Positions 8,737 through 27,972 of a DNA stretch of 35,543 bases are shown piece after piece; position 1 is the first letter of the stretch, and each line of letters opens with the position of its first letter. The notes under the pieces were generated by a model, which was given only the letters and a program-made list of their open reading frames with translations, ran no database searches and was not told the origin of the DNA. Position numbers and translations under genes: made by a program. This stretch comes from Planctomycetaceae bacterium. GTDB taxonomy: Bacteria; Planctomycetota; Planctomycetia; Pirellulales; Thermoguttaceae. The stretch covers positions 1-35,543 of the forward strand of contig WRMR01000001.1 in the NCBI GenBank assembly GCA_009776995.1, written 5' to 3'.

Positions 8737-10236
<1,500 letters not shown>

Positions 10237-14863: not shown

Positions 14864-14895
14864 GCAGAATGCAGAATGCAGAATGCAGAATGCAC
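14864..14895. repeat. Tandem heptamer array (GCAGAAT)x4 + GCAC, left arm of an inverted pair
   Basis: Read directly. It starts 2 nt after the phosphoesterase stop. It is complementary (about 26 of 27 positions) to 15417-15447. Confidence 0.9.
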
Positions 14896-15032
14896 TTGCG
14901 CAACTGGTGATTAAGGTGAAATAACGATATACGAAAACGAAAAAGGAAGTTTAGTGCAAAATAGAGTTATGTGCAAGTGCTGGTGAATGTTCCCTCATTC
15001 TGTATTTTCCATTTTGCATTCACTGGGTTACC

Positions 15033-15416
15033 ATGAAAGAATCCATACTTCGCGACAAAAGCTATGCGTTTGCCTTGCGAATAGTGAATCTGGCAAAGTA
15101 TTTGCAGACGAAAAAGCGCGAATTTATCCTTAGTAAACAGATACTTCGGAGTGGAACCGCTATTGGAGCATTGGTCAGAGAGTCTGAACGCGCAGAAAGT
15201 ACAGCGGATTTTGCTCACAAACTGAATATCGCGTTGAAAGAAGCCGACGAGACAGACTTTTGGCTTTCATTATTGAAAGACTCAGATTTTATGAATGAGA
15301 AATCTTACGTGAGCATTTCAAGAGATTGCCAGGAACTGATTTCCATTCTTGTTGCTTCCATCATAACAGCCAAGAAGAATGCCAAACGAAAAACACAGAA
15401 TGAGAACAAAGAATGA
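15033..15416 (+). CDS. Four-helix-bundle protein (23S rRNA intervening-sequence protein family, TIGR02436-like)
   Basis: 127 aa: SYAFALRIVNLAKYLQTKKREFILSKQILRSGTAIGALVRESERAESTADFAHKLNIALKEADETDFWLSLL is the family signature. Confidence 0.85.
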   Translation: MKESILRDKSYAFALRIVNLAKYLQTKKREFILSKQILRSGTAIGALVRESERAESTADFAHKLNIALKEADETDFWLSLLKDSDFMNEKSYVSISRDCQELISILVASIITAKKNAKRKTQNENKE

Positions 15417-15447
15417 ATTCTGCACTCTGCATTCTGCATTCTGCATT
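15417..15447. repeat. Heptamer array ATTCTGC-ACTCTGC-ATTCTGC-ATTCTGC-ATT, right arm of the inverted pair
   Basis: It starts immediately after the stop codon of the four-helix-bundle gene. Its reverse complement is AATGCAGAATGCAGAATGCAGAGTGCAGAAT. Confidence 0.9.
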
Positions 15448-15489: not shown

Positions 15490-18042
15490 ATGAACCAATT
15501 CGAGAACCCGAACGACCGTTACGCCGCGTCACAACGCCAGATGATCACGTTTATTTTTCTGATGGCGGCGGTTTTTCTTTTTTTGCAATGGATGCGACCG
15601 CCACAGCAGCCCAGGCAAGGGAACAATCCGGCGCAACAAACCGAAGATGATCCGGTGAACGCCCTTTTCAACGGTAACGAAACGACAGGCGATGACGCCG
15701 TTGAGACGCTTGATGTTCCGGTGTTTCCGGGTTCTTACGTAACACTCGGTTCGGCGGATCCGAAAAGTCCGTACAACATGCTTGTCACGCTGTCCAGCCG
15801 GGGAGCGACTGTGCGGCAGATCGACATGAACAAGCCGCAATATCGTGACACGCAAGACTCGACCGGCTGGATGGGACAGATCGTTGTTGAATTGGCCGAC
15901 ATGCCCGAATACGGTTGCCCGGTGCAGGTGGTCGGTCAGGGAACACCGGCGGAAGCGGCGGGACTACAGCCGGGCGACGTGATTGTCCAATTCAACAACA
16001 CGGACATTGCGTCGTTTGAGGATTTGCGAAAAGCCCTGCTTGCAACGAAGCCGAATCAAACCTGCAAGTTGACCGTCCAACGTGCTGAAGCCGAAGTCAA
16101 ACTGGAAGTCAGGCTGACACAAGCTCCTCTGTCGATTGTGCGACCGGAAACGCCGGTGACCGACTTCGAGTCCTACAAGAATCTGACCGGCTTGCACGCT
16201 TACGATGCAGAAACGCAACCGCCGCTGTCGTTCGCGATGACATTCGAGCGGATCGACAGTGCTGAGTTGCCGATGCCTCTGTGTCTCCGCCCCGCCCGGG
16301 ATGACCAGGACTTTGACAGCCGTCCGGCACGATTTGGGCAGGACACGCCGCGCGACACCGGCATCGAAAACGAACTGCCAGGCGTCAAGCTCCGCTCGGA
16401 TCACTGGAAACTCGAATCAGTCGATGAAAACGAAGTGGTTTTTTTGCAATATATTCCCAAGTCGCGGCTGGAGGTGCGAAAGACCTATCGTTTGGAAAAA
16501 ACCGCGAATGACGCCGACCCCGGTTATGCCCTGACACTCAAAATTGACATCAAAAATACCGGGGAACGGGAGCGTAAAGTTGCCTACCTGCTTGACGGTC
16601 CGTCGGGATTGCCGATTCAGGGTGCCTGGTATGCGGCCGGCCGCAAAACCGGTCCCGGCTGGTCGGGCTACGGAATGCGGGATATTGTCTATCAACTCCA
16701 TGACAAGCCTTCCGATGTTCTGACATGCAACAAGATTGCTGCCGACAAACACGACAAAATTGCGGTTGACCTTGCAACCCGCCGAAAACTGCTGGATTAT
16801 ATCGGCGTCGATACGCAGTATTTTCAATGCACGATGATCACAGACCGGGAGGACTTGGAGGAATCGAATCTCGAATACGTCGTCCCCATGCGGGTTGGCA
16901 CATTCACGAAAGCTTGGCCTGTTGTCACAAATGTGTCGTTTCGGCTTGTCAGTGCCGAAAAAACATTGCAACCGGAGGAAACGCTCTCGCACGAGTACAA
17001 AATTTTCGCCGGCCCGAAACAACCGGAGACGCTGGAAGCCTACGGATTGCGCGACACCTTGTACTACGGCTGGTTTGCCTGGTTCGTCAAGCCGTTGCTT
17101 TGGCTGTTGCACGTGTTCCATTTTTTCATTCGCAGCTATGCACTGGCGATCATCCTGCTGACCATCGTGGTGCGATTGCTCCTTTATCGCTTGAACCGCA
17201 AGCAGATGCTCAGCATGATGCGCATGCAGGAAATGAAACCGGAAATGGAGAAAATCACCGAAAAATACAAGGACGACATGCAGGAACGCTCGAAGGCATT
17301 GCAGGAATTGTACCGGAAACACAATTTCAATCCGCTTTCGGGCTGTTTGCCGATGCTGATCCAGTTGCCGATTTTGGTCGCGCTGTACAAGGCACTTTCG
17401 GTCGATGTCGAGTTGTACGGTGCCTCACTGCTGGGAAGCGGCGTTCGCTGGTGTTCCGACATGGCCGCCCCGGACCGGCTTTGGGATTGGAGTAACCTCT
17501 GGATTTCCCTGGGCTGGACGAGTTTCAATAACGGGTACAACATGTTTGCGCTCGGCCCGTACCTGAACGTGCTGCCGGTCATCACGATTATCCTGTTTCT
17601 CGTGCAACAGTCCGTCATGATGCCTCCGCCGACCACCGATCAGGAAAAACAAATGCGCACGATGATGAAATTCATGATGATCTTTATGGCCTTCATGTTT
17701 TTCAAAGTGCCGAGCGGTTTGTGTATTTATTTTATCGCCAGTTCGCTCTGGGGCTTTGCCGAGAAGAGATTTCTGCCGAAACCCAAACCGGTAAGCGCGT
17801 CCGACGGCACATCTCCGCCGCCGGCTGAAGTGACCGTGACCGACCGCAAATACCCTGTTCGCCCGGTCGATGACCGCGAATCGAAAAAGAAAAAGAAGCA
17901 CAAGCAGTCGCCGACCAACGAAGACGAGCCGCAGGGTTTTTGGCAGGAGATCAAATCCCGCTGGAAACGGGTTCTCGAAGAAGCCCAACATCGCCCCGGT
18001 GACTCCCAAAAACCGGGACGAAGACGGACGCGGAAGAAGTAG
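15490..18042 (+). CDS. yidC: Membrane protein insertase YidC, long form with PDZ-like insert and basic C-terminal tail
   Basis: The conserved core is YGWFAWFVKPLLWLLHVFH...YALAIILLTIVVRLLLYRLNRKQMLSMMRMQEMKPEMEKITEKYKDD...ELYRKHNFNPLSGCLPMLIQLPILVALYKAL. A PDZ-like segment GTPAEAAGLQPGDVIVQFNNTDIASFEDLRKAL lies in the periplasmic domain. The tail is Lys/Arg-rich. Confidence 0.92.
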   Translation: MNQFENPNDRYAASQRQMITFIFLMAAVFLFLQWMRPPQQPRQGNNPAQQTEDDPVNALFNGNETTGDDAVETLDVPVFPGSYVTLGSADPKSPYNMLVTLSSRGATVRQIDMNKPQYRDTQDSTGWMGQIVVELADMPEYGCPVQVVGQGTPAEAAGLQPGDVIVQFNNTDIASFEDLRKALLATKPNQTCKLTVQRAEAEVKLEVRLTQAPLSIVRPETPVTDFESYKNLTGLHAYDAETQPPLSFAMTFERIDSAELPMPLCLRPARDDQDFDSRPARFGQDTPRDTGIENELPGVKLRSDHWKLESVDENEVVFLQYIPKSRLEVRKTYRLEKTANDADPGYALTLKIDIKNTGERERKVAYLLDGPSGLPIQGAWYAAGRKTGPGWSGYGMRDIVYQLHDKPSDVLTCNKIAADKHDKIAVDLATRRKLLDYIGVDTQYFQCTMITDREDLEESNLEYVVPMRVGTFTKAWPVVTNVSFRLVSAEKTLQPEETLSHEYKIFAGPKQPETLEAYGLRDTLYYGWFAWFVKPLLWLLHVFHFFIRSYALAIILLTIVVRLLLYRLNRKQMLSMMRMQEMKPEMEKITEKYKDDMQERSKALQELYRKHNFNPLSGCLPMLIQLPILVALYKALSVDVELYGASLLGSGVRWCSDMAAPDRLWDWSNLWISLGWTSFNNGYNMFALGPYLNVLPVITIILFLVQQSVMMPPPTTDQEKQMRTMMKFMMIFMAFMFFKVPSGLCIYFIASSLWGFAEKRFLPKPKPVSASDGTSPPPAEVTVTDRKYPVRPVDDRESKKKKKHKQSPTNEDEPQGFWQEIKSRWKRVLEEAQHRPGDSQKPGRRRTRKK

Positions 18043-23548: not shown

Positions 23549-26515
23549 ATGATTCATTCCGCAATTGTTTCATGGCCTGAATTCTACCACACACCAATTT
23601 TTTCGGCAACAATCCGATGGCTTGCCACTTTTAACCCGTTTCCAAAATGTTACAATCATTCTGATCGTCCAAATGATTTCTCCTGTTCGCTTTTCCGATG
23701 GATCACCATGCTTGCGTCGTTTTCGATTGCCGTTTGTATTTCGCCGATGGGGCATCCCTATCTGGACAGTGTGAACAACGGTGACGTCGCTACTTCAGGA
23801 AATGTCGAAAGCAAGTTCACGTCACCACTGGAAAACCGGCTTATGGCCGCGTTTTCTTCGGATTTGCAGTATGCCAAAGGTTTGCTGCATCTGGCAACGG
23901 TCGAGTTGCAAACGTTGTTGCCGCCGGATTTTGATTTCTTGCGGTCGTTTGCGAAAAGTTACATGACGCGGTTGTGTCACCTGCCGGAAATGGCCGGGGC
24001 AGGCACCAACGGCAATACGGCGCAAGTGGTGCAAAAAATTTCGCCGCTTGAACCGCCGTCGCTTGCCGAATTTGAGTTTTTTCTCGCCGGGATGCCGCCC
24101 ATGTTTGGGGCGGAGTATCTCACGTCGGAAGTACTCGGCCAGTGGTGGCGGGAACTCGACCGCCATGTCCGGGAAAAAATCGCAAAACACCAGAATTGTT
24201 GCGCTGGTGGCACTAACGGTGCCGCCGATTGGATTCGACAGCAAAACCCGCTGTGGCGAACCGTTGGCAGGGTTACGTTTCATCTGGCGGAAAACAAACG
24301 GGACGAGCAACGCCCCTTTGCGTTCATGGCGACTTACACCGACAAGGTATCGACCAACGCCAAGCCCGTGCAATTGCCGCTTGCCAAAGCACTCAACGAA
24401 TACGTGTCGGCCAAAGATCGCGACGCCCTGTTGCGACTGTTGCAACCGATCACCGTCGCTGCGGAAAAGTGCGACTGGGTGCAAAACATGGTAAGCGACC
24501 AGACGATATACCAGCCGCGAGCCTGGTCGGTCAGGCAGGCATACCAGTTACTTCAGGACATTCCGGTGCTCGAAGAGGCGGGACTCATCGTGCGTGTGCC
24601 CGACTGGTGGCACAAAAGCCAACCGTCGCGGCCCAGGGTCAAAGTCAGCCTCGGGGCGGGAAGCGGGGCGAAAACGCTGACCGCCGATTCGCTCTTGAAT
24701 TTCCGCATAGAAACCGTTTACAATGATGAAACGTTGACGCCGGAAGAACTTGCCGAACTGCTTGCCGCCGATGCGCAGCTTGTCCGGCTTCGCGGCGAGT
24801 GGGTCGAAATCGACCGTGAGCAACTCAAGGCGACGCTTGACCATTGGAAAAAAATCGACACGATGGTTCGCGAGGACGGCATTTCATTTTACGAAGGAAT
24901 GCGGCTGCTTTCGGGTTTGCCGGTGGACGGAAAATGGGACGCCGCTGAAAAAGAGACGATGTTCCGCAATTGGTCGGAAGTCGTGCCGACCTCACAATTC
25001 GCGGAGTTGCTTGCCGCCATGCGCAACCCGAATAAACTGGACAGGTCTGATATTGGCCTTGCAAAACTCAATGCCACATTGCGTCCGTATCAGGAAACCG
25101 GCGTTCGGTGGTTGCATTTTATGACGCAAATTGGACTGGGAACGTGCCTGGCCGATGACATGGGGCTTGGTAAAACGATCCAGGTCATCGCTCTGTTGCT
25201 CATGCAGCAACAAGAGGTGCGACTGCAAAAAGAGTCGCTTGCGACATCGCTGTTGATTGCCCCGGCATCGCTGCTGGCGAACTGGGAATCGGAAATCCGG
25301 CGGTTCGCCCCGTCGCTGAAAACGCATATCGCGCATGGGAGTGGTGCCGGAGCGGACGAGCCGGAGCATCTCGGCACCGTGCAACTCGTCATGACAACTT
25401 ACGGAATGCTCGACCGACTTGACTGGATCAAATCGAAAACGTGGCGCAACGTCATCATCGACGAAGCCCAGGCGATCAAAAACGCCGGGACGCGACAGTC
25501 GAAAGCGGTCAAAAGCGTTCGCGCGACCGGCCGCATTGCACTGACGGGCACGCCGGTTGAAAATCGCCTTTCGGACTTGTGGTCGCTCTTCGATTTTATC
25601 AATCCGGGACTGTTGGGAACAAGTGCCGCGTTCAACAAATTCACCAAATCGCCGGCCACGCAGCAAAACCGCGAGTCAACATACGCCCCGTTACGACGGC
25701 TGGTGCAACCCTACATTTTGCGGCGGCTCAAAACCGACAAGACGATCATCTCCGACCTGCCCGACAAGACGGAAGTGACGGCGTGGTGCAGTCTCTCAAA
25801 AGATCAGGTGAAACTGTACGCCCAATCGGTGAAGCAGCTTGCCGGCGACTTGAAAGCCAACGAGGAAGGCATCAAGCGTCGCGGTGTTATTCTTTCGTAC
25901 CTGATGCGCTTCAAGCAGATTTGCAATCACCCGGCACAGTGGTCGGGGGACGGCGATTATGCCCCGGCGAAAAGCGGCAAGTTCGAGCGATTGCGTGAGA
26001 TTTGTGAAGAGATTGCCTCGCGTCAGGAAAAAGTGCTCGTGTTTACGCAGTTTCGTGAAATCACCGGAGCACTGTCGTATCACCTGCAAAACGTGTTCAA
26101 AAAGCCCGGCCTCATTCTCGACGGCAGTACGGCGATTGCGAAGCGGCGGCAGATGGTCGAGGCATTTCAAACGGAATCGGGGCCGCCGTTTTTTATTCTC
26201 TCGCTCAAGGCGGGCGGCACGGGCTTGAACCTGACGGCGGCTTCGCATGTCGTGCATTTTGACCGATGGTGGAACCCGGCGGTCGAAAATCAGGCGACCG
26301 ACCGCGCGTTCCGCATCGGCCAGAAGAAAAACGTGCTCGTGCATAAGTTCGTCTGTCGCGGTACGATTGAAGAGAAAATCGACGAACTGATCGAAAGCAA
26401 AAAAGCACTCGCCGGCGAAATCGTCGATGCCGGCGGCGAGTCGCTTGTCACCGAAATGAGCGACGCCCAACTCATGCAGATGGTTTCGCTCGATTTGGAA
26501 AAATGCCGGGGGTAA
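23549..26515 (+). CDS. SNF2/Swi2-family helicase (bacterial type that pairs with SWIM proteins)
   Basis: LRPYQETGVRWL, motif I LADDMGLGKTIQ, motif II IIDEAQAIKN, motif III LTGTPVENRLSDLWSLFDF, SLKAGGTGLNLTAASHVVHFDRWWNPAVENQATDRAFRIGQ. The true start is uncertain. The first roughly 55-100 codons are AT-rich and W/F/C/H-rich and look non-coding; in-frame ATGs lie at 23708, 23747 and 23843. Confidence 0.9.
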   Translation: MIHSAIVSWPEFYHTPIFSATIRWLATFNPFPKCYNHSDRPNDFSCSLFRWITMLASFSIAVCISPMGHPYLDSVNNGDVATSGNVESKFTSPLENRLMAAFSSDLQYAKGLLHLATVELQTLLPPDFDFLRSFAKSYMTRLCHLPEMAGAGTNGNTAQVVQKISPLEPPSLAEFEFFLAGMPPMFGAEYLTSEVLGQWWRELDRHVREKIAKHQNCCAGGTNGAADWIRQQNPLWRTVGRVTFHLAENKRDEQRPFAFMATYTDKVSTNAKPVQLPLAKALNEYVSAKDRDALLRLLQPITVAAEKCDWVQNMVSDQTIYQPRAWSVRQAYQLLQDIPVLEEAGLIVRVPDWWHKSQPSRPRVKVSLGAGSGAKTLTADSLLNFRIETVYNDETLTPEELAELLAADAQLVRLRGEWVEIDREQLKATLDHWKKIDTMVREDGISFYEGMRLLSGLPVDGKWDAAEKETMFRNWSEVVPTSQFAELLAAMRNPNKLDRSDIGLAKLNATLRPYQETGVRWLHFMTQIGLGTCLADDMGLGKTIQVIALLLMQQQEVRLQKESLATSLLIAPASLLANWESEIRRFAPSLKTHIAHGSGAGADEPEHLGTVQLVMTTYGMLDRLDWIKSKTWRNVIIDEAQAIKNAGTRQSKAVKSVRATGRIALTGTPVENRLSDLWSLFDFINPGLLGTSAAFNKFTKSPATQQNRESTYAPLRRLVQPYILRRLKTDKTIISDLPDKTEVTAWCSLSKDQVKLYAQSVKQLAGDLKANEEGIKRRGVILSYLMRFKQICNHPAQWSGDGDYAPAKSGKFERLREICEEIASRQEKVLVFTQFREITGALSYHLQNVFKKPGLILDGSTAIAKRRQMVEAFQTESGPPFFILSLKAGGTGLNLTAASHVVHFDRWWNPAVENQATDRAFRIGQKKNVLVHKFVCRGTIEEKIDELIESKKALAGEIVDAGGESLVTEMSDAQLMQMVSLDLEKCRG

Positions 26516-26647
26516 CAATCATTTTTTCACAAGGCACAGTGGCAAAAGATTGTTTTGTACCAATGATACACAATATCCTGACGGAATCATCCGCATGCAC
26601 GTTAAAACATGCCGTTTTTCGCCTAGAACACCGCGCTCGCGGGATAC

Positions 26648-26920
26648 TCGAATACCAAAAAAGACGATTCGAATACCCTCAGAGTGTACTCGAATACCCC
26701 GGGGGACTATTCGAATACCCCCGGAGAGTACTCGAATACCCCGGGGGACTATTCGAATACCCCCGGAGAGTACTCGAATACCCCGGGAGACTATTCGAAT
26801 ACCCCCGGAGAGTGCTCGAATACCAAAAAAGACGATTCGAATACCCTCAGAGAGTACTCGAATACCCCCGGAGAGTACTTGAATACCATCAATGTGAATT
26901 CGAGTACACCAAAAGTGCGC
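26648..26920. repeat. Tandem array of 13 units of exactly 21 bp, core TCGAATAC(C)
   Basis: Core starts are at 26648, 26669, 26690, 26711, 26732, 26753, 26774, 26795, 26816, 26837, 26858, 26879 and 26900, a constant 21-bp spacing. The last two units are degenerate. Confidence 0.95.
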
Positions 26921-26997
26921 CATTGACCGCCCTGACTGCGACACTGTGTTATCGTATTTTACAATCTCAATCACTCAAAAATGAAAGGAATCACATC

Positions 26998-27972
26998 ATG
27001 TCTTATTACGGTTTCGGTTGGCGGCCTTACGTTCCGGTTGCTCAAAAACGGGCGAATGCGGTTCGGTACGTCAATAAAAAACTCGGCAAGAAGGCGAACC
27101 CCATCAACATCGAAGGGAAGAAGATCGCCAAAACGTTTTGGGGAATTGCCTGGTGCGACAATCTGGAATCGTACAGCGATTACGCAAACCGGATGCCGCG
27201 CGGCAGGACATATATCCGTAACGGCTCGGTCGTGCATCTCGAAATCGACAAGGGCGTGGTGCGTTCGTATGTCGCCGGGTCGGATACCTACAAAATCGAG
27301 GTGAAAATCGAGCCGCTCAAGCCCGCTGCCTGGAAACGGCTCAAGCAAAAATGTGCCGGAGAAATCGCGTCGGTCGTTGAACTCCTGCAAGGCAAACTCT
27401 CGAAAAACGTGCTTGCCATCGTTACGGACAAAAAGGAAGGCTTGTTCCCTTCGCCGAAAGAAATCACACTCGATTGCTCGTGCCCGGATTGGGCGGTCAT
27501 GTGCAAACACGTTGCGGCGACACTTTACGGCGTCGGGGCATTGCTTGATAAAAGCCCTGAACTGTTTTTCAAGCTGCGCGGCGTCGATCACCTCGCACTG
27601 ATCGAAACGTCGGTCGCCATTCCGGCGGGCAAAGCCGATTCTGAAACGCTGGACACCGAAAGTCTGGAAGGCATTTTCGGCGTCGAACTGGCGACTTCGC
27701 TGGAAGACAAGCCCGCCCCGGCAAAGAAGACCAGCAAAAAAGCGGTCAAAAAAACCGCGAAGAAGTCAACCAAAAAAGCGGTGAAGAAACAGGCACCGAA
27801 AAAAACGACCGGAAAAGTCGCTAAAAAATCAACGCCGGCATCGGAAAAGGCATTGAAGAAGCCCGTGAAAAAGAAGGCGGCGAAGAAAGCAACGATCAAG
27901 CAAATTTCCCCGAAGAAAGTAGCCGGAAAAAAGACAAAGAAGACCGGCAAGAATGCTTCCGGGAAAAAATAA
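26998..27972 (+). CDS. SWIM zinc-finger protein with Lys/Ala/Pro-rich histone-H1-like C-terminal tail
   Basis: ATG 26998 is preceded by AAAGGA. The N-terminus MSYYGFGWRPYVPVAQKRANA...IAKTFWGIAWCDNLESYSDYANRMPRGRTYIRNGSV is typical of the SNF2-associated SWIM family. The SWIM CxCxnCxH motif is in LDCSCPDWAVMCKHVAA. The tail is KKTSKKAVKKTAKKSTKKAVKKQAPKK... Confidence 0.85.
   Translation: MSYYGFGWRPYVPVAQKRANAVRYVNKKLGKKANPINIEGKKIAKTFWGIAWCDNLESYSDYANRMPRGRTYIRNGSVVHLEIDKGVVRSYVAGSDTYKIEVKIEPLKPAAWKRLKQKCAGEIASVVELLQGKLSKNVLAIVTDKKEGLFPSPKEITLDCSCPDWAVMCKHVAATLYGVGALLDKSPELFFKLRGVDHLALIETSVAIPAGKADSETLDTESLEGIFGVELATSLEDKPAPAKKTSKKAVKKTAKKSTKKAVKKQAPKKTTGKVAKKSTPASEKALKKPVKKKAAKKATIKQISPKKVAGKKTKKTGKNASGKK

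Follow-up and report, generated by a model that had tools for sequence, protein, structure and literature searches.

A phased 21-bp tandem-repeat array between SNF2 and SWIM genes of a Planctomycetaceae bacterium, probably a lineage-specific insertion of a dispersed intergenic element

The REP/BIME elements of enterobacteria and pseudomonads are built of units of ~35–40 nt in alternating orientation, which fold into stable hairpins to which host proteins bind. Shorter repeats serve plasmid replication and partition, such as the 20-bp repeats of pSK41 parC and the Rep iterons of 19–22 bp, and these arrays adjoin the genes for their own binding proteins, rep or par. MIRUs, the interspersed repetitive units of mycobacteria, are tandem repeats in short spacers within operons; they lie at scattered loci, vary between strains and have a length that is a multiple of three, and their units, of ~40–100 bp, are fairly uniform. 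The MIRU-VNTR repeats are the subject of Supply et al. (1997, 2000), going by references 121–122 of PMC3914561. Here, we describe an array of 21-bp units in the spacer between an SNF2-family helicase gene and a SWIM zinc-finger gene of a Planctomycetaceae bacterium. The array lies in a 35,543-nucleotide stretch of DNA, called the window hereafter. The features of the locus, in window coordinates, are as follows.

23549–26515, plus strand: SNF2-family helicase gene (Pfam SNF2-rel_dom, E=9e-67; DUF3670; Helicase_C); context, outside the element
26515–26647, plus strand: leader, the non-repeat left part of the proposed insertion, with no counterpart in relatives
26648–26920, plus strand (as the core is written): 13 units of 21 bp arrayed head-to-tail, 11 with perfect TCGAATAC cores and units 12–13 degenerate
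26648–26689, plus strand: A-B pair (units 1–2), which recurs with 1 substitution as units 9–10 (26816–26857), 168 bp on
26690–26815, plus strand: 42-bp C-D higher-order repeat in three copies, copies 1 and 2 identical and copy 3 with 2 substitutions
26825–26863, minus strand: terminator-like hairpin and T-run from units 10 and 9, a 13-pair stem followed by CGTCTTTTTT
26921–26968, plus strand: trailer, the right part of the proposed insertion; relatives re-align only from 26969–26984 or later
26969–26997, plus strand: native SWIM 5′ leader with its ribosome-binding site (GAAAGGAAT...ATG), conserved in array-less relatives and outside the insertion
26998–27972, plus strand: SWIM zinc-finger gene, start ATG 26998; context, outside the element

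The window is otherwise ordinary chromosome, carrying genes for ATP synthase subunits, an H+-pyrophosphatase, porphobilinogen deaminase (hemC), YidC (yidC), a transglutaminase-like protein, and LRR and HEAT proteins, and neither tRNA genes nor Rfam families were found in it. The nearest protein relatives come from Planctomycetaceae MAGs, whose locus-tag style and sample identifiers point to a termite-gut origin. The Pfam SWIM match of the SWIM gene fell slightly under the cut-off, and the last ~85 residues of its product form a lysine/alanine/proline-rich tail; Pfam and tail composition together agree with the preliminary description of this DNA, which had named as neighbours an SNF2 gene and a SWIM gene whose product has an H1-like DNA-binding tail. 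In the closest relative with a long contig (L022), the SWIM gene is followed by a gene for a WYL/WCX-domain regulator (HTH_11 plus WYL; L022 7092–8078) and, further on, by an AAA ATPase gene, where the window instead has an opposite-strand LRR protein downstream of SWIM. Elsewhere in the window, (GCAGAAT)x4.4 at 14864–14894 and its inverted complement (ATTCTGC)x4.4 at 15417–15447 bracket a gene of 127 aa (15033–15416) that matches TIGR02436, a four-helix-bundle family (23S rRNA intervening-sequence/Avd-like); this 14864–15447 stretch resembles an inserted cassette, with a metallophosphoesterase gene on one side and yidC on the other.

In the short-read metagenome assembly, in which the copy number of an array may be inaccurate, the perfect core recurs 11 times at exact 21-bp steps (26648, 26669, 26690 ... 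26858), the units that carry it spanning 26648–26878, and the two degenerate units follow with TTGAATAC at 26879 and TCGAGTAC at 26900. A single further exact core is present in the 35.5-kb window, at 16871, and just one copy of the array. Tandem Repeats Finder reported periods of 21, 42 and 84 with scores of 256, 312 and 374, respectively, and the units are ordered A-B-C-D-C-D-C′-D′-A-B′-D-x-x. The palindrome TATTCGAATA is found at 26708–26717, 26750–26759 and 26792–26801, and CCCCGGGG is found in the C units, for example at 26697–26704. When the four unit types were compared, they differed at 0 of 8 core positions versus 3–8 of 13 non-core positions, and across the 9 distinct units of the window, core positions 1–8 and the G at unit position 16 (G16) are invariant. 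The regularity of the array is far above chance. The preliminary description had read this anatomy correctly: its 13 phased cores, 11 perfect and 2 degenerate, match in position exactly, its four unit types in a higher-order pattern with units 1–2 recurring as units 9–10 at 168 bp were borne out, and both the palindromes at the unit junctions and the second palindrome in the C units were located.

On either side of the array, the putative insertion continues into non-repeat sequence. The leader stretch 26580–26647 is readable as three decayed 21-bp units, and the leader motif is ATCCGCWTGCACGTTAAAA. The trailer holds a weak sigma-70-like match (GCGACA, 16 nt, TACAAT; hexamers spanning 26938–26965), and such matches were at chance level (2 found versus 1.0 ± 0.9 expected). 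The ribosome-binding site of SWIM is at 26985–26992. No terminal inverted repeats were found at the ends of the insertion; by eye, a 6-bp CAATCA, the only candidate target duplication, is seen at each end, as well as a 7-bp CACAGTG/CACTGTG pair, and no significance is claimed for either.

Eight related SWIM-gene loci were compared with the window, with the upstream gene visible in six and the SWIM side only in L091 and L092. The flanks of these relatives are 75–92% identical to the window at the nucleotide level; their left-flank alignments end at 26484–26514 and their right-flank alignments restart at 26969–27018, and nucleotide alignment found no counterpart of window 26515–26968 in any of the eight. 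Neither a 21-bp array nor even one TCGAATAC core was found at the junction in these eight loci, which answers in the negative a check that the preliminary description had proposed, namely the inspection of homologous SNF2–SWIM junctions for phased repeats. The SNF2 stop and the SWIM ATG are 482 bp apart in the window. In L022/L023 this distance measures 24 bp (SWIM 90% identical, SNF2 confirmed by tblastn), in L025 27 bp (upstream SNF2 confirmed by tblastn), in L112 55 bp and in L110 83 bp, the upstream gene of the latter two being without a Pfam record and unconfirmed as SNF2. The gaps of L024 (156 bp) and L093 (516 bp) are each filled by other small insertions; in L091, 48 bp are visible upstream of SWIM, and in L092 the upstream gene appears to be a different one. 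As judged from these alignments, the array is a lineage-specific insertion of ~450 bp.

Since relatives carry other, unrelated small insertions at the same place, the junction appears to tolerate or attract insertions, and the SNF2–SWIM junction can be regarded as a hot spot for varied small non-coding elements, which is useful to know when these operons are annotated. In L024, a ~130-bp palindromic element lies at the SNF2–SWIM junction (827–982). In L093, a GC-rich hairpin with a T-run and a MITE-like element whose inverted ends are long (AGCCGCTCACGAA...CTCGCAGAGA) are found at 538–1053. In L110, (AGGGCAT)x4.4 and then (ACTCATC)x4.4 occupy the gap upstream of SWIM (9924–9989), and in L068, a contig taken up below, (GCCGTCT)x5 and (CTAGCCA)x2.9 lie beside a 21-bp array (55–107). 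Such heptamer blocks, of ~31 bp and ~4.4 copies each, recur in the intergenic DNA of related contigs and are reminiscent of the cyanobacterial STRR heptamer repeats. A 30-bp array in L025, considered as a relative of the window array, reads by eye as a coding pentapeptide repeat and was rejected as unrelated.

A homologous array was found on the metagenome contig Ga0209737_10188576 (L054), which carries ~21 units with the same core as the window. The L054 array opens with A-type units TCGAATACCAAAAAAGTGGTC (first unit TCGAATACCAAAAAAG...), versus TCGAATACCAAAAAAGACGAT in the window, and B-like units come next. The sequence preceding it is homologous to window 26580–26647 (GGAATaATCCGCtTGCACGTTAAAA...): the local alignment score of the two leaders was 41, or 12 sd above the scores of leaders from 69 other arrays (14.9 ± 2.1, maximum 20), and BLAST gave 92% identity across 25 nt. 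The similarity of the trailers is modest (score 25 versus 15.9 ± 2.0). Downstream of the L054 element comes an unrelated DUF6985 gene, in the orientation seen in the window; the contig ends inside the leader, and the upstream flank of the array is missing. In L085 and L086, the orthologues of this DUF6985 gene (81% identity) are accompanied by a TauE gene and by a 310-bp spacer that lacks an array, and no SNF2 or SWIM gene was found near the DUF6985 orthologous loci. The units of the L054 array all keep G16 and have an almost invariant core, and their spacers differ from those of the window. The expansions differ as well, with A repeated seven times in L054 versus C-D three times in the window, so that the arrays appear to be dynamic.

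A similar array of 10 units (TCGAATACCCCGGCGGGGTCT), with no leader homology detected, adjoins a histidine-kinase gene in L068, which is from the metagenome of the closest SWIM relative. So far, the window and L054 are certain sites of the element and L068 is a probable one; they are on separate contigs that may come from different genomes, and the putative dispersed family thus counts few cases. The element is absent from the orthologous loci both at the window site and at the L054 site. The same repeat is present at unrelated intergenic sites, one certain and one probable, an outcome that the preliminary description had itself set against its reading of the array. At the end of a Treponema MAG contig (L016), a unit 19/21 identical to B′ was found and judged to be chance or convergence: leader similarity is lacking, the gene content is spirochaetal (TatT/TRAP), and the fold asymmetry is opposite to that of the window.

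A search for three cores at 21-bp spacing returned 21 loci in species-representative genomes, 53 in metagenomes and 5 in viral contigs, from many phyla, where ~0.004 hits would be expected in random sequence by the analyst's rough estimate. Most of these hits are plain 21-bp tandem repeats that contain the 8-mer by chance, and in the viral collection, three shuffled cores gave 3, 11 and 2 loci versus 5 with the real core. Because the shuffled-core controls match the counts of the real core, the core hits in other phyla are taken as background, and conservation of the core across phyla was rejected. In the viral contigs, the 16-mer shared by A units had 26 single matches, unphased and at chance level, and the leader motif had 0 hits. 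A literature search with the core sequences yielded primers and unrelated sequences only.

Three TCGAATAC cores at 21-bp spacing were seen in the viral contigs L079 (263–325) and L082 (6904–6966), with spacers unrelated to those of the window (38% identity). In L079, the cores are inside the called ORF of a DnaD_N/HTH_36-like replication gene beside recT, and in L082, they overlap the 3′ end of a shorter ORF called for that gene. They are plausibly origin iterons of that phage, and their having the 8-mer in common with the window is most likely a coincidence. On another unrelated, AT-rich contig (L113, 2380–2600), a 21-bp quasi-palindromic array (TTGAACACnCCAGGTGATyAy), just downstream of two apparent tRNA genes identified by eye, was called as a 120-aa gene, which shows how gene callers turn such arrays into spurious heptad ‘proteins’.

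The folding of the array was predicted for both strands. The plus strand of the window array gave −128.8 kcal/mol (z −6.6 versus shuffles) and the minus strand −178.5 kcal/mol (z −9.9 versus shuffles). The greater stability of the minus strand is also seen in L054, is absent in L068 and is reversed in L016. It arises because A.C positions of the plus strand become G.U on the minus strand, as is the case for most non-Watson–Crick positions in the unit hairpins. Since the window and L054 share ancestry, the asymmetry is not counted as evidence for a minus-strand RNA. An analogous minus-strand hairpin sequence, from units 2 and 1, is present at ~26657–26695, and terminator-like sites occurred at chance frequency (1 found versus 1.3 expected in shuffles). 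The Rfam covariance models gave 0 hits at gathering thresholds, and at E<=1 nothing but sub-threshold hairpin noise appeared. The dyad symmetry of the units and their very stable predicted folds may be compatible with a role at the RNA level or as a cruciform. As to reading frames, the one that starts at ATG 26503, 13 nt before the SNF2 end, is open across the 482-bp spacer into SWIM (489-aa ORF to 27972), and a minus-strand ORF of 151 aa is open at 26519–26974.

Several other explanations of the array were weighed against these results. That it is a coding repeat, either a 165-residue N-terminal extension of SWIM with 13 heptads (L/F)EYPxxx or the 151-aa minus-strand gene, has next to no probability in our assessment. 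Its unit length is divisible by three and 2 of the 6 frames are open through leader, array and trailer, but no Pfam domains occur in these frames, a six-frame concatenated peptide search found no homologue, a heptad-frame search (SNT frame) against 1.84 billion representatives returned 480 heterogeneous, spurious heptad ORFs, and the SWIM proteins of all relatives begin at the M1 equivalent, behind a conserved ribosome-binding site; the open frames are probably a by-product of a stop-free repeat. We consider it highly improbable that the units are iterons or a centromere left by a plasmid or phage, or a replication origin. Among the scanned ORFs of the 35.5-kb window, none was recognised as a rep, par, integrase or phage gene, and the insertion is only ~450 bp, against which stand the three phased copies of the 8-mer in or near the DnaD-like replication gene of the L079/L082 phage. 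In unit length and phasing the array is indeed like plasmid iterons and ParR-type centromeres; the 482-bp spacer showed no similarity by BLAST to 72,556 plasmids or 50,697 phages, and no DnaA boxes were found near the array. An element acting at the RNA level, in which the transcribed array folds into long hairpins and works like a REP/BIME, could protect the SNF2 message, attenuate read-through into SWIM or terminate antisense transcription on the minus strand. The predicted folds, far more stable than shuffles on both strands, speak for such an element, as do the strand asymmetry repeated in L054, the A.C/G.U bias of the unit hairpins and the hairpin plus T-run motifs of the minus strand. 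This explanation is nonetheless unlikely: the asymmetry does not hold in L068 or L016 and its two positive cases are not independent, conservation lies in the primary sequence of the 8-mer and not in pairing, the L054 units are much less palindromic, Rfam offers no match, and a convincing minus-strand promoter to the right of the array was not found.

The position of the array exactly between the two genes, its phased-site architecture and the basic H1-like tail of the SWIM protein would all suit a dedicated platform on which the SNF2 translocase, the SWIM protein or both bind for autoregulation or loading, as the preliminary description had proposed. This proposal has become very unlikely, since the array is missing at all eight related loci despite their high nucleotide identity and its L054 homologue belongs to a DUF6985 locus, near the orthologues of which there is neither an SNF2 nor a SWIM gene. 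A basic low-complexity tail, moreover, is not expected to read an 8-bp sequence, which counts against binding by SWIM. Because the array is a lineage-specific insertion by these comparisons and has a homologue beside unrelated genes, it does not appear to be part of the SNF2–SWIM machinery, and its link to the pair is best explained as positional and incidental. An attractive but wrong lead is thereby removed, and the array says nothing specific about how bacterial SNF2–SWIM pairs work. The array could instead be a neutral minisatellite without any binding function, whose core is invariant as the units are recent copies and whose spacers were changed by replacement. The identical 42-bp blocks and the near-identical 168-bp repeat would fit this, 21-bp tandem repeats are common in genomes of all kinds, and in the viral collection the real core, with 5 loci, was within the range of the shuffled ones (2–11). 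We give a neutral origin little probability, however, for the independently expanded L054 array keeps the core and G16 though its spacers differ, and all differences among the four unit types fall outside the 8 core positions (p ~0.002, a rough estimate).

The explanation that we prefer, and regard as on balance probable, is that window 26515–26968 is a dispersed, probably mobile and expandable intergenic tandem-repeat element, present here as a lineage-specific insertion. Under this explanation, a non-coding element of ~450 bp, made up of leader, 21-bp array and trailer, would have been inserted into the normally very short SNF2–SWIM junction, in this lineage only, and would be a member of a small homologous family that occupies unrelated intergenic sites in termite-gut Planctomycetaceae. 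The array would grow and shrink by slipped-strand mispairing or by unequal recombination between units, changes of size that quasi-palindromic units should favour, and the identical 42-bp blocks and the near-identical 168-bp repeat show that blocks were duplicated recently. Locally, the insertion would have left the two genes 482 bp apart with strongly self-pairing sequence between them, while SWIM would keep its own ribosome-binding site.

Each unit of the proposed element would be a putative head-to-tail site recognised by a sequence-specific protein whose gene lies elsewhere in the genome; copies of this protein would align on one face of the helix. Because the core and G16 are preserved and the other unit positions diverge, also in L054, a constraint appears to act on TCGAATAC-N7-G, and this pattern is as expected of a protein that would contact two successive major grooves, every two helical turns. 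The invariant core would be best explained by a phased array of binding sites. The part of the preliminary description that read the array as phased and binding-site-like is upheld by the invariant core, G16 and the unit length of 21 bp, equal to two turns; the part that tied it to SNF2 and SWIM fell away. Its further statement that the region resembles neither a CRISPR nor a promoter nor a coding repeat was supported, in that the region is not a CRISPR, is no obvious promoter and is very probably non-coding.

Going beyond the dispersed-element explanation, the leader-plus-array elements might be previously undescribed mobile chromosomal binding-site cassettes of Planctomycetes, on whose 13–21 phased TCGAATAC-N7-G sites a dedicated protein polymerises head-to-tail. 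We hold this stronger version to be quite improbable. If it were true, the element could act on the gene downstream (SWIM in the window, DUF6985 in L054) by insulating, silencing or activating it, and the element would spread and resize between strains. What is described here is apparently an undescribed small family of intergenic tandem repeats with a strictly conserved core in uncultured termite-gut Planctomycetaceae. Should a cognate binding protein exist, the arrays would serve as natural multi-site scaffolds and as markers for strain typing; should there be none, they would be one more case of bacterial minisatellites.

Among the known systems, CRISPR resembles the element in its leader and in the conserved repeats that come after it at regular spacing, separated by variable sequence. 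In the window, however, the ‘repeat’ would be 8–9 bp and the ‘spacer’ 12–13 bp, and the spacers fall into a few recurring types that are in part complementary to the core; a CRISPR was rejected on these lengths, which are too short (repeats should be 23–47 bp), on the recurrent spacers and on the absence of cas domains from the window. With plasmid iterons and ParR/omega-type centromeres, the array shares many head-to-tail sites of ~20–22 bp on one helical face, in which the core is conserved and so is a second contact roughly one turn from it (G16 in the window), but it lies in a housekeeping chromosomal region without a rep or par gene. The likeness to REP/BIME lies in palindromic units that are dispersed between genes, often those of a single operon, and alternate in a higher-order pattern, whereas in the window every unit is 21 bp long and has the same head-to-tail orientation; neither a RAYT-type transposase nor a GTAG-type motif was found within the 35.5-kb window. 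Like MIRU-VNTR, the element consists of intergenic repeats in an operon spacer, with a length divisible by three and an open frame that shares sequence with the end of the preceding gene (here from ATG 26503), and the behaviour of a dispersed repeat, with differences in presence and expansion between relatives, was observed at the window and L054 sites. It differs from MIRU-VNTR in its 21-bp units with an invariant 8-bp core and strongly divergent spacers, in its conserved non-repeat leader, and in phylum (Planctomycetaceae here, Mycobacterium there), with 2–3 loci known so far; MIRU proper was rejected on the 21-bp unit and the Planctomycetaceae neighbours. By analogy, then, the element would be best filed as a dispersed, expandable intergenic tandem repeat similar to MIRU-VNTR and BIME, and set apart from them by its 21-bp unit, its design of constant core and variable spacer, and its conserved leader.
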